Source: a virus (lineage: Duplodnaviria > Caudoviricetes). From it: a stretch of 64,000 bases of DNA. Made by a program: the position numbers and the translations under genes. The number at the start of each line of letters is the position of its first letter. Within the stretch, counting starts at the first letter, position 1. Below, piece by piece: positions 31,950 through 38,201 of the stretch. Below the pieces are notes generated by a model that saw only the letters and a list, made by a program, of their open reading frames with translations, was not told the DNA's origin and did not search any database. Where the stretch lies: positions 32,001-96,000 of IMG/VR virus record IMGVR_UViG_3300029288_001928. One strand, written 5' to 3'.

Positions 31950-32035
31950 GGAGAGTGATCTATACGGCGGTCTGTAGAACCGTTGCTTTTAATATGTATA
32001 GCGGCTAGCGATGGGTTCAACTCCTACACTCTCCA
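31950..32035 (+). tRNA. tRNA-Tyr(GTA) lacking a D-arm, 8/4-like (possibly a pseudogene)
   Basis: ggagagtg/cactctcc; gcggt-ctGTAga-accgt; only about 9 nt where the D-arm should be. Confidence 0.6.
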
Positions 32036-32205: not shown

Positions 32206-32210
32206 TTTAT

Positions 32211-32282
32211 AGCCCTGTAGTGTTAATGGGAGCACATTTGATTGTTACTCAAAAAGTGGGGGTCCGAATCCCTCTGGGGCTG
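32211..32282 (+). tRNA. tRNA-Asn(GTT)
   Basis: tttga-ttGTTac-tcaaa. Confidence 0.75.
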
Positions 32283-32288
32283 TTACAC

Positions 32289-32395: not shown

Positions 32396-33661
32396 CTAAA
32401 TATTACTTTTATCTTGATTCTTGGTGAGTGGGACTCTAAACTCCACTCTGTTAAGATCAAAGAAACCAGATTCTAACCAGTAGAATCCTTTTCGGTTCCT
32501 TTGTTCTCTACGCAATTCCCAAGGAATGTCCGGTAATTCTATTTCATGATTGAGTGCAGCATTAAGATCAGAATCAATCTCACTTCCACATTCTTTACAT
32601 TTGTATAGTTTACTTTTTCTTTGTGACTTACGCACCATTCCGCAACATGAACATCTTTGACTACGATAAGTACAACTTTGCTCTTTGACATGGACCCCAT
32701 GTAATTCGCAAGTTGATAGTAACTTATCTCTGATCAAAGTGTTCGTCCAATGAGACATTAACCTTGAAGTTTTTGACTTAAAGTTAATGTTCCAAACTTT
32801 CTCTAAATTTACTTGTTTTACTTCACTTAAATTTAATCTATTAATTGACCAATTAATAAAATTCTTTCTTTCTTGTTGTTTCTTTTGGAATCTCTTACTT
32901 CCTTTTTTACATTTACTCAAACTTAACATTATAGAATCAAGTGACTTACCATGAAGATTAGTTTTTGGTGGGACAATTCCATTTGAAAGAGTAACTACAT
33001 CTTTCTTACCTTGGTCACAACCAACCACAATTCCATTTTGTTTCTTTTCTACTTTAGTTTCCCAACGAAAGTTTATCCAGTTTTCATTAAGTAAGAACGA
33101 ATTCTTAAGTTCCCAATCTTTATATTTTTTATTATGTTTATGTAATTTTACTGGTAATTTTATAAACCCATAATCTTTACCAATGGACTTTAATCTTACG
33201 AAGTAATTAAATTCACCTTCTACCTTTTCAATGTCAACACATTTAGAACTTAATTCTGGATTGAGTTTACTTATATCTGGTTTTTGTGGTTTATTTTGTT
33301 CTATTTTCTTTTCTAATTGTGAATTTGGTGTTTTCTCCCACTGATACAATCTCTTTCTTTGCTTTTCAACCGAGGCACCTATAATCCCACAAAGTTGTGT
33401 AACAAGTGAACTTAATGCTCTTGCTGATAAGTTTGTCTTTATATCAAATGAGTTATAATCAATGAATTTTGGATGATCTAATTTATTCTCATTAACATTA
33501 AATTCATAATTTTTATTTTTAACTTCCCACTTGTATCCATTTTCCCATATTTGATCAAGAATCAAACCACTTACTCTACGATATTCACTAATAAACTCTT
33601 GAAGTTTATTCAACTTATTAGTATTACTGAATTTAAGAGTATGGTTAGTCGTTCTGATCAT
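32396..33661 (-). CDS. tnpB: TnpB/Cas12f-like RNA-guided nuclease
   Basis: RuvC-I VGCDQG, RuvC-II NLE, Zn finger CSCCG..CKECG, RuvC-III DSDLNAALN. Confidence 0.9.
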   Translation of the reverse strand: MIRTTNHTLKFSNTNKLNKLQEFISEYRRVSGLILDQIWENGYKWEVKNKNYEFNVNENKLDHPKFIDYNSFDIKTNLSARALSSLVTQLCGIIGASVEKQRKRLYQWEKTPNSQLEKKIEQNKPQKPDISKLNPELSSKCVDIEKVEGEFNYFVRLKSIGKDYGFIKLPVKLHKHNKKYKDWELKNSFLLNENWINFRWETKVEKKQNGIVVGCDQGKKDVVTLSNGIVPPKTNLHGKSLDSIMLSLSKCKKGSKRFQKKQQERKNFINWSINRLNLSEVKQVNLEKVWNINFKSKTSRLMSHWTNTLIRDKLLSTCELHGVHVKEQSCTYRSQRCSCCGMVRKSQRKSKLYKCKECGSEIDSDLNAALNHEIELPDIPWELRREQRNRKGFYWLESGFFDLNRVEFRVPLTKNQDKSNI

Positions 33662-34092: not shown

Positions 34093-34587
34093 TTATATAT
34101 TTGTAGGTATTTTAAAAAATTTAGATTTTGTCATACCACGATTATCCATATCAATCACAAGAACATTTTTAATAGTATTCAATAAATCAGATACTCTTAT
34201 AGGTTTGTATATAATAGCATCTGCACCAATACTTACAATTTTTTCGTATGGTATTTGTAATTCTGAAAGTGCCATTAGAATTACAGGAGTTTCATTTTGG
34301 GCCTGTCGAATACAGTCAATGAAATTTTCTGTTTGATTTTCTGGTAAAGTTGTATCCAAAAATATAATATCAAAATCTTTATGTTCGTCTAAAATATTTT
34401 TTAATGCTTTGTATGAATCTTCAACGATTGTTATTGTGCATGGAGAACAATATCTTTGAATTGTTTTTTCGACATATTTGCATAATACATCATTGTTATC
34501 AATTATTAAACAATTTAAGTTATTTTCGACAATTTTATGTCTTTCGGTTTTTTGATTATGATATTCTTTTGTATCTGTATTATCCAT
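34093..34587 (-). CDS. Single-domain response regulator (receiver)
   Basis: LIIDNN, FDIIFLD..LP, PVILM, GADAIIYKP. Confidence 0.8.
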   Translation of the reverse strand: MDNTDTKEYHNQKTERHKIVENNLNCLIIDNNDVLCKYVEKTIQRYCSPCTITIVEDSYKALKNILDEHKDFDIIFLDTTLPENQTENFIDCIRQAQNETPVILMALSELQIPYEKIVSIGADAIIYKPIRVSDLLNTIKNVLVIDMDNRGMTKSKFFKIPTNI

Positions 34588-37260: not shown

Positions 37261-37400
37261 GTAGCGAATGCTAGTGAGGTTTACATCGAATGTTAATCGG
37301 CTGGTCGTAGGTTCGAATCCTACCAATAATAACGAAAGTTATTGTTGTAGCTCAGTTGGTAGAGCAGCAAAAAAATAGACTTCACAATTTTTGTCGCTAC
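37261..37400 (+). ncRNA. Y RNA (YrlA-like) 4 with a permuted tRNA-like domain
   Basis: gtagcGAATGC...tttttgtcgctac; T-arm gtagg-ttcgaat-cctac, closed acceptor with a GAAA loop, D-arm tagctcagttggtagagc. Confidence 0.85.
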
Positions 37401-37563: not shown

Positions 37564-37632
37564 TTATATTGACTATTGACAACCATTAAAACTATGTTAT
37601 AATATTATCATTGCAAAAAGGAGCAATTATTT

Positions 37633-37857
37633 ATGATTCGTGTAGATAGAAAGCCTAATGAACCAATTGATAAACTTCTTCGTCGCTTCAAAAAGCGGTG
37701 CGAAAAAGAAGATCTTATCAAAGATATGAAAAAAATAGAATACTATGAATCCGATAGCGTTCGTAGACGTAGAGCAAAAAGAAAATTAGAAAAACGTCTA
37801 GAAAAAGAAAAAACAGAAGGAACAAGTCCAAAAGAAGACTTCACTTTTTGGGAATGA
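37633..37857 (+). CDS. rpsU: Ribosomal protein bS21
   Basis: NEPIDKLLRRFKKRCEKE..IKDMKK.EYYE..SVRRRR. Confidence 0.9.
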   Translation: MIRVDRKPNEPIDKLLRRFKKRCEKEDLIKDMKKIEYYESDSVRRRRAKRKLEKRLEKEKTEGTSPKEDFTFWE

Positions 37858-37873
37858 AAATTCCCAAACATAT

Positions 37874-38155
37874 TCCCAAGTAGCTCAATGGTCGAGCAAT
37901 CGGCTGTCGGTGGCAGCTTTTACTGGAAACAGTAATCGAAAATTCTCCAAATTAGGGGGACTCTTAACAGGTTATGCTGATGATTATCCCTAGCCAAGCA
38001 TGAGTGTAAAAACTCAAGGCGTGTGTAGAGACTAGAAGGAGAACACCTTTAAACTGGTGATGGTATAGTCCAGACCACAAACTTACATTAGGTAGCGAAA
38101 GCTATAGTGGTATGTAACCGATAGGTTGTAGGTTCGAATCCTACCTTGGGAGCCA
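37874..38155 (+). tRNA. tRNA-Asn(GTT) with a group I intron (exons 37874-37907 and 38115-38155)
   Basis: Joined exons give atcgg-ctGT|Taa-ccgat, tcccaag/cttggga, encoded CCA. Confidence 0.9.
37908..38114 (+). other. Group I intron, 207 nt, no ORF
   Basis: P1 gctgt/gcagc with U.G at the splice site; R element gtagagacta; S element ggtatagtcc; terminal G. Confidence 0.88.
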
Positions 38156-38201
38156 ACGAGAAGTTTGATGGTTTTACTCAAAAACAAAAATCATCATTTA
38201 T

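Follow-up and report, generated by a model that had tools for sequence, protein, structure and literature searches.

The window, i.e., the entire stretch of 64,000 nucleotides analyzed here (positions 32,001 to 96,000 of the IMG/VR virus record IMGVR_UViG_3300029288_001928), carries on its plus strand a tRNA-Asn(GUU) gene that is split within the anticodon by an intron of 207 nt. According to the sequence and to ARAGORN, the 5′ exon (37874..37907) comprises the acceptor 5′ strand, the D arm, the 5′ strand of the anticodon stem and the loop nucleotides C32, U33, G34 and U35, while the 3′ exon (38115..38155) comprises U36, A37 and A38, the 3′ strand of the anticodon stem, the variable loop, the T arm and the acceptor 3′ strand with G73 and an encoded CCA. 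The tRNA gene starts 16 nt downstream of a gene for a phage ribosomal protein bS21 of 74 aa (37633-37857, plus strand; Pfam PF01165, 51.5 bits), and a promoter scan detected a perfect sigma-70-type promoter (TTGACA-16-TATAAT with an upstream TG, 12/12 matches) on the same strand at 37576-37603. The genes for bS21 and tRNA-Asn are likely co-transcribed from this promoter.

Tail sheath and large terminase genes are present in the record of 133 kb (estimated to be 62% complete, ~29% G+C), and at least 27 tRNA genes in the window, all of which agrees with the phage origin assumed when the DNA was first read. The tail sheath is ~34% identical to the sheaths of T4-like cyanophages and other large myoviruses, and judged by this similarity the record represents a large myovirus distantly related to T4-like phages. 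The closest homolog of its bS21 (P0002, on a contig of 2.3 kb) is 84% identical. No syntenic relatives were found in IMG/VR, either via this homolog or via the 361-aa protein encoded downstream, cultured phages had no megablast match to a query of 15 kb, and the exact exon-plus-intron pattern of the split tRNA-Asn had 0 matches in IMG/VR. The stretch has its best DNA match in a metagenome from a landfill, possibly the source sample, and none of the runs listed as containing it is an RNA run.

Several further observations were made around the gene. The closest named cellular homologs of bS21 belong to Planctomycetota (~58% identity), which is a possible clue to the host. A contig of 1,078 nt (depth 4) from the landfill run has 81 letters where the window has 37869-38157 (289 bases), with flanks that are ~82-90% alike; it would be consistent with a co-occurring relative whose tRNA at this locus is intronless, and hints at a presence/absence polymorphism. 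At 37290-37366, a permuted tRNA-like module consists of a TGTTAA remnant, a T arm, an acceptor helix closed by GAAA and then a D arm; the 17 nt of this T arm (37307-37323) recur without a change in the T arm of the split tRNA-Asn (38128-38144), where chance alone would give 0 matches, and the module has the appearance of a YrlA/Y-RNA-like element derived from this tRNA-Asn lineage. Two minus-strand ORFs are also found in this region: one of 421 aa (32396-33661) inside the tRNA array with a Cas12f1-like/TnpB TNB domain (PF07282, 49.5 bits), and one of 164 aa (34093-34587) between tRNA genes with a response-regulator receiver domain (PF00072, 47.8 bits).

Exons, Splice Junction and Detection of the Split tRNA Gene

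By reading of the sequence, the 34-nt 5′ exon ends in ...GGCTGT (...AATCGGCTGT), and the 41-nt 3′ exon starts with TAACCGAT and ends in ...GGGAGCCA (...CTTGGGAGCCA). When the exons were joined in a script, ARAGORN recognized a tRNA-Asn(gtt) of 75 nt that folds into a normal cloverleaf with the loop CUGUUAA, G73 and CCA; the insertion point of the intron is located after U35, i.e., at 35/36, in the CUGU/UAA junction. The joined exons are identical at 69/75 positions (92%) to an uninterrupted tRNA-Asn(GUU) of another IMG/VR viral contig (L075:6073-6147), which has the same loop CTGTTAA and in which a T-A pair of the anticodon stem is replaced by G-C, a compensatory change. The identity of the tRNA is given by its sequence, namely by GUU in a 7-nt loop, by G73 and by the high similarity to this intact tRNA-Asn. 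Additionally, Logan DNA contigs from two unrelated metagenomes skip 207 bases exactly from 37907 to 38115, without slack; most simply, these contigs represent other, intronless tRNA-Asn genes, and they confirm the exon boundaries.

Default ARAGORN listed 27 other tRNAs in the window without reporting the split gene, and the Rfam tRNA model detected its 3′ half with 16.4 bits and not the whole tRNA. Thus, the sequence-only reading was right both in deriving a complete tRNA-Asn(GUU) with CCA from the exons and in expecting that standard finders may miss it, and mislabeling has to be added to the hazards: the intron mode of ARAGORN moved the junction by one base and labeled the gene tRNA-Thr(ggt), i(34,207).

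A junction located one base leftward would indeed give tRNA-Thr(GGU) as the product, and the ARAGORN annotation of the array in the window is otherwise devoid of a Thr(GGU) gene. However, U37907 faces G37913 in the P1 helix of the intron, the uninterrupted DNA contigs run from 37907 to 38115 without slack, and the tRNA body is Asn-like, with a U1-A72 pair and G73, and shares 92% identity with an intact tRNA-Asn(GUU). Moreover, the leftward junction would leave a G before the 5′ splice site and a U at the end of the intron, contrary to the U/G rule that is satisfied by 98.5% of raw intron calls (Williams, 2020; bioRxiv 10.1101/2020.01.27.920355). On these grounds tRNA-Thr(GGU) was rejected as an extremely improbable product, and only the junction 37907/38115 combines a U ahead of the 5′ splice site with a terminal G of the intron.

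Anatomy of the Intron

The intron (37908..38114, plus strand) begins with CGGTGGCAGC, ends in ...GTGGTATG and resembles the compact IC3-like tRNA type of group I introns. It contains no ORF of at least 30 aa on the plus strand and encodes no endonuclease, and a Pfam scan of its neighboring ORFs detected no endonuclease domain; an endonuclease-bearing mobile intron was rejected for these reasons.

All group I helices, P1 to P10, can be formed on the plus strand, with P10 as a candidate by complementarity. P1 (37902..37918) consists of 6 bp between the exon sequence GGCUGU (37902-37907) and the guide GCAGCU (37913-37918), closed by the loop CGGUG, with the wobble pair U37907·G37913 at the 5′ splice site. 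The putative P10 strand CGGU (37908..37911) may pair with ACCG (38117-38120) of the 3′ exon. P2 (37920..37935) is a hairpin of 6 bp with a GAAA tetraloop (37926-37929), and the 5′ strand of P3, UUCUCC (37943..37948), finds its partner GGAGAA at 38038-38043. The P4-P5-P6 domain (37953..38020) comprises P4 (37953-37958/37987-37992), P5/P5a (37962-37970/37977-37983), P6 (37993-37995/38018-38020) and P6a (38001-38005/38012-38016); its joining segments J4/5 (37959-37961) and J5/4 (37984-37986) carry an unusual G and an unusual U, respectively, when aligned to the intron family. P7 (38030..38070), the guanosine-binding helix formed by GACUA (38030-38034) and UAGUC (38066-38070), encloses the 3′ strand of P3 (38038-38043) as well as P8 (38044-38047/38056-38059), and P9 (38074..38111, ACCAC/GUGGU) encloses a mini-hairpin (38082-38091) and P9b (38092-38096/38101-38105) with its GAAA tetraloop (38097-38100). 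The last nucleotide before the 3′ splice site, G38114, aligns with the terminal G of 30 relatives and corresponds to omega-G.

All helices are canonical except for one U·U mismatch and a 2-nt bulge, both in P5, and the anatomy of the sequence gives a group I core from P3 to P9 including the P3/P7 pseudoknot and the G-binding P7. This agrees with what had been read from the letters, namely a 207-nt ORF-less group I intron at 35/36 with a U·G pair at the 5′ splice site in P1, core elements and a terminal G; the coordinates, the missing ORF and the covariance-model matches described below, among them an alignment to RF00028 over its full length, all bear this description out. Folding of the single sequence recovered most helices, with an MFE z-score of just −1.27, a value that carries little information. 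A protein-spliced BHB tRNA intron, the canonical position of which is 37/38, was rejected in view of position 35/36 and the full group I core.

Covariance Models and Compensatory Changes

An Rfam group I search, proposed together with the first description of the intron, gave a full-length match to RF00028 (Intron_gpI, model positions 1-253) with 42 bits and an E-value of 1.8e-9, or 1.3e-10 when the 133-kb record was searched, and did not reach the curated gathering cut-off of 50 bits. This cut-off is a database threshold without biological meaning as a feature, and none of the Rfam group I seed sequences is bacterial; a threshold of ~18-20 bits was used by Williams (2020; bioRxiv 10.1101/2020.01.27.920355). 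Because the RF00028 score was below the curated cut-off, an independent test with a covariance model was built. A P7-P9 signature common to the intron and its first two blastn matches was scanned through IMG/VR and yielded 69 stretches, among which ARAGORN and the U/G rule resolved 32 distinct intron-split tRNAs; the model, R1, was derived from an alignment of 30 of these viral tRNA introns from which the intron of the window was left out. R1 recognized the latter (37900-38120, model positions 1-208) with 122.7 bits and an E-value of 4.7e-35, a score in the lower-middle part of the 50-214 bits that the family spans, and as the sole such element in the 133-kb record. Two further matches were discarded: cmscan and ARAGORN both failed to reproduce a second, weak RF00028 match outside the window (G000:C1:31003-31201, 14 bits), and a weak R1 match at 2812-2934 in the terminase ORF (13.9 bits) was taken as noise.

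In the alignment of 31 sequences, compensatory double changes were observed for 26/40 pairs predicted by RNAalifold, distributed over P2, P3, P4, P5, P6, P8, P9 and P9b. Each P2 pair showed 8-18 double changes and all six pairs of P3 covaried, with 9-19 double changes each, P9 was changed from CCAC/GUGG to CUAC/GUAG in four sequences, and the P7 strands GACUA/UAGUC were invariant. Furthermore, the guide covaries with the exon among 33 family members: GAGU is found with ..ACUU, GGUC with ..GACU and GCAGC with GCUGU, the guide GCAGC being present in all tRNA-Asn cases.

Departures From the Family Consensus

The other 30 introns share 93 columns with a conservation of at least 90%; the intron of the window has the consensus nucleotide in 82 of these and differs in 11. 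Four of these differences fall into the exon/P1 part, as expected given the different tRNA, two convert a C-G pair of P4 to A-U and are compensatory, and one in J8/7 (38061) is common to two other family members. The last four comprise G37959, where the family has its first J4/5 adenine, U37985, where it has a J5/4 adenine, and two that stem from a J6/7 that is ~4 nt longer. Hence, J4/5 reads GA and J5/4 reads UUA in this intron. The adenines of J4/5 in studied group I introns contact the wobble pair at the splice site and help to recognize it, and this role is the main ground for caution regarding the activity of the intron. Across 101 introns of the family, including those from bacteria, the first J4/5 position is A in 88 and G in five; the J4/5-J5/4 combination A/A occurs in 73/101 relatives and G/U in 2/101, the carriers of G/U being the intron of the window and a tRNA-Lys intron of the huge phage LR756508. 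The recurrence of G/U in LR756508 suggests that J4/5 G together with J5/4 U may be a tolerated variant rather than damage.

The main rival to a functional intron is a decaying relic that splices poorly and leaves the gene as a tRNA pseudogene, with Asn codons decoded by another tRNA. A second, intronless tRNA-Asn(GUU) was indeed detected by ARAGORN at 32210-32283 in the same array, and its presence means that the split copy could decay without loss of function. Departures from the family in J4/5, J5/4 and J6/7, i.e., at functionally sensitive places, an R1 score in the lower-middle of the family range and the lack of a homing endonuclease that would maintain the intron point in the same direction. 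Contrarily, P1-P4 and P6-P9 are without broken pairs and P5 shows only the U·U mismatch and the 2-nt bulge, the exons are pristine, their stems being perfect and 92% of their positions identical to those of an intact homolog, and the junction variant G/U is found again in another phage intron, with J4/5 G in 5/101 natural introns. The second tRNA-Asn is, moreover, a very different gene (49/80 aligned positions identical to the split copy) and not a recent backup copy. Taken together, decay of the intron is considered unlikely, and an intron that is still capable of splicing is the preferred reading.

Distribution of the Intron Family

The 69 IMG/VR stretches with the family signature include tRNAs for Leu, Met, Arg, Lys, Thr, Ile and Asn. 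In viral contigs, the introns are located after U34 mostly, and after U33 in some cases, of tRNA-Leu(UAA), after U33 of tRNA-Met(CAU) and tRNA-Ile(GAU), after U33 or U34 of tRNA-Arg(UCU), after U34 of tRNA-Thr(UGU) and tRNA-Lys(UUU), and after U35 of tRNA-Asn(GUU). Dense tRNA arrays, with at least three other tRNA genes nearby, surround 28 of the 69, and several viral contigs have two or three split tRNAs, such as IMGVR_UViG_3300008267_000013 (L011, L073) with split tRNAs for Asn, Ile and Leu, and IMGVR_UViG_3300022935_000005 (L031) with a split tRNA-Arg, a Glu-like one and a third. Bacteria carry the signature as well: it was found in at least 120 species from many phyla, for the most part in tRNAs for Leu, Arg and Met, and no tRNA-Asn is among the 120 bacterial matches listed. 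The sequence-only reading had considered such a site in a phage rare; the intron does not stand alone but is an ordinary member of a family found widely across phage tRNA arrays, with 69 stretches in IMG/VR.

Searches with Asn-specific 3′ junction patterns identified one other tRNA-Asn case in IMG/VR (L011) and three in metagenomes (L197, L198 and L199). Their introns are only 61-68% identical to that of the window and all have the GCAGC guide, and the nearest relative of the window intron overall resides in a tRNA-Arg (68%). This pattern indicates that the Asn site was probably colonized more than once.

Members of the family were also recognized in named phages. The cultured jumbo Agrobacterium phage Atu_ph07 (MF403008.1, ~112.9-113.25 kb, minus strand; L005:344-707) has an unannotated split tRNA-Leu(UAA) with a 278-nt group I intron after U34 (R1 170.8 bits); its 3′ exon is overlapped by a CDS annotated as 'hypothetical protein' (AUZ94936.1). 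The uncultured huge phage LR756508.1 has a tRNA-Lys(UUU) split after U34 (L004:460-730, R1 133 bits) and a second family intron ~200 nt downstream (L004:886-1074, R1 104.9 bits). In Pelagibacter phage HTVC120P (MH598807.1; L003:515-730), a family intron was found in the capsid gene (RF00028 48.6 bits, R1 131.8 bits), which is annotated as two CDS, gp29 and gp30, with the intron between them.

Discussion

With the sequence anatomy, the family membership, the covariation and the exon junction established, the element is very probably a genuine compact IC3-like tRNA group I intron that separates U35 from U36 in the tRNA-Asn(GUU) gene of a phage, where it would reside as a self-splicing, neutral or selfish passenger. 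From its anatomy and established group I chemistry we infer splicing in vivo, the transcription unit and the mode of spread as follows. The promoter at 37576-37603 probably drives transcription of the precursor along with that of phage bS21. The exon sequence GGCUGU would pair with the guide GCAGCU to form P1, a free guanosine bound in P7 would attack after U37907, and G38114 would then occupy the guanosine site of P7 for ligation of the exons, possibly assisted by a P10 between CGGU and ACCG. Ligation would create the loop CUGUUAA and hence the GUU anticodon. A working tRNA-Asn is plausible given that 6.9% of the codons in ten long ORFs specify Asn (404 AAT and 57 AAC of 6,637). The endonuclease-free intron would most likely be inherited vertically and occasionally shift between tRNA genes by retargeting of its guide. 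Self-splicing and the status of a neutral passenger are the most likely properties of the element on the basis of these sequence comparisons.

An adaptive role would add to self-splicing and does not exclude it: the precursor, in which the anticodon does not yet exist, could escape host anticodon nucleases, or splicing could couple the supply of the tRNA to GTP, Mg2+ or the timing of infection. Some anticodon nucleases count tRNA-Asn among their targets, and we know of no nuclease that is involved here. The frequency of the intron family in phage tRNA arrays (28/69 IMG/VR stretches with at least three other tRNAs nearby), the fact that in its tRNA members the anticodon loop is always the interrupted site, and the position of the gene directly behind phage bS21 with its strong promoter, as in a module for translation takeover, are circumstantial points in line with such a gate or shield. 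However, the preference for the anticodon loop is explained by the need of the intron for a U and for exon pairing, the same sites are occupied in at least 120 bacterial species, where the logic of phage defense does not apply, and the spliced tRNA-Asn is ordinary and exposed like any other. The notion of a protective precursor, raised already in the sequence-only reading, is thus speculative and unlikely, and an adaptive gate or shield in either form appears decidedly improbable. A more far-reaching version, in which the precursor pool would be nuclease-resistant, GTP-gated and released together with bS21 in a timed takeover, and in which phage tRNA arrays would form a large and so far unreported reservoir of endonuclease-free introns that change between tRNA species by retargeting of their guide, is very unlikely; if it were true, a GTP-dependent step would withhold the anticodon of a heavily used tRNA (Asn 6.9% of codons).

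Independent of any adaptive role, a split tRNA gene of this kind has consequences for the annotation of phage genomes. Default finders skip the split gene and intron-aware ARAGORN returns Thr for Asn, and tRNAs that are skipped or mis-typed in this way bias tRNA inventories and the arguments on codon supply drawn from them for large phages. The presence of a family intron in the cultured phage Atu_ph07 makes a bench test of phage tRNA self-splicing easy to set up. Moreover, at least seven tRNA species have near-identical cores inserted after U33, U34 or U35, with a guide that fits in each case, which provides a natural data set on the change of target by endonuclease-free introns; the intron of the window itself is ordinary.

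With respect to the literature, a review of 2014 places all phage introns observed up to that time in protein-coding genes, despite the many tRNA genes of phages (Hausner, Hafez and Edgell, 2014; PMC3984707), and a later study describes phage tRNA introns as previously unreported and mentions 'enigmatic' ones in Lak megaphages (Devoto, 2019; PMC6784885). A full-text literature search found no description of a phage tRNA gene that is split by a group I intron. Such introns are essentially unreported in print, which contrasts with the 69 IMG/VR stretches and the intron of Atu_ph07 identified here. The introns of Lak megaphages resemble the one of the window in being located in phage tRNA genes; as far as the accessible text goes, they were found with the eukaryote mode of tRNAscan and assigned to no class (PMC6784885), whereas a complete group I core is present here. 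The protein-gene introns of phages, i.e., those of T4 (td, nrdB and sunY), Twort, SPO1 and the HTVC120P capsid gene, are likewise phage-borne group I introns with self-splicing, a property that is predicted for the intron of the window, and the one of HTVC120P is even a member, by its sequence, of the family described here (R1 131.8 bits, blastn 72.7%). Contrarily to the window intron, they interrupt coding genes and are often accompanied by homing endonuclease genes.

In its architecture, the intron is close to the IC3 introns of Azoarcus sp. BH72 pre-tRNA-Ile(CAU) and of cyanobacterial and plastid tRNA-Leu(UAA). All of these are ~200 nt in length, ORF-less and inserted in the anticodon loop after a U, bear GAAA tetraloops on P2 and P9, and have nearly the same core with J3/4 AAA and P7 GACUA/UAGUC. 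The consensus core of the family presumably resembles that of the Azoarcus ribozyme. Differences concern the site, which is 35/36 here as compared to 36/37 in tRNA-Ile and 34/35 in tRNA-Leu, the viral host, J4/5 with GA instead of AA, the longer J6/7, and a short P8 without an obvious tetraloop receptor. By anatomy, i.e., as a compact and ORF-less intron after U35 with GAAA loops on P2 and P9, the element is IC3-like.

The background given in the sequence-only reading is out of date: the four classical tRNAs named for bacteria have been superseded, since the number of intron-split bacterial tRNA classes was raised from four to 21, and these include the class Asn.4Ug, represented in the accessible part of the seed alignment by Pam37.Asn.4Ug, a tRNA-Asn with the site 35/36 (Williams, 2020; bioRxiv 10.1101/2020.01.27.920355). 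The comparison with bacterial tRNA-Asn introns proposed at the outset thus led, as far as this part of the alignment shows, to the same tRNA and the same site. The insertion point 35/36 of tRNA-Asn is consequently not new, as it is known from the bacterial Asn.4Ug class and from the four additional environmental examples found here. The intron of the window shares with this class the tRNA-Asn exons, the insertion after the fourth loop nucleotide (CUGU/UAA), the U at position −1 and the G at omega. It differs in its location, the class having been derived from bacterial genome assemblies and the window intron residing in a phage tRNA array, and, as judged from the accessible seed row, P2 of Pam37 apparently has a UUAA loop as compared to GAAA in the window intron, so that the two may be of different lineages. 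Taken all together, the anatomy, the exons and the site identify the element, as far as sequence comparison can assign it, as a phage-borne, IC3-like tRNA group I intron that belongs to the Asn.4Ug class.
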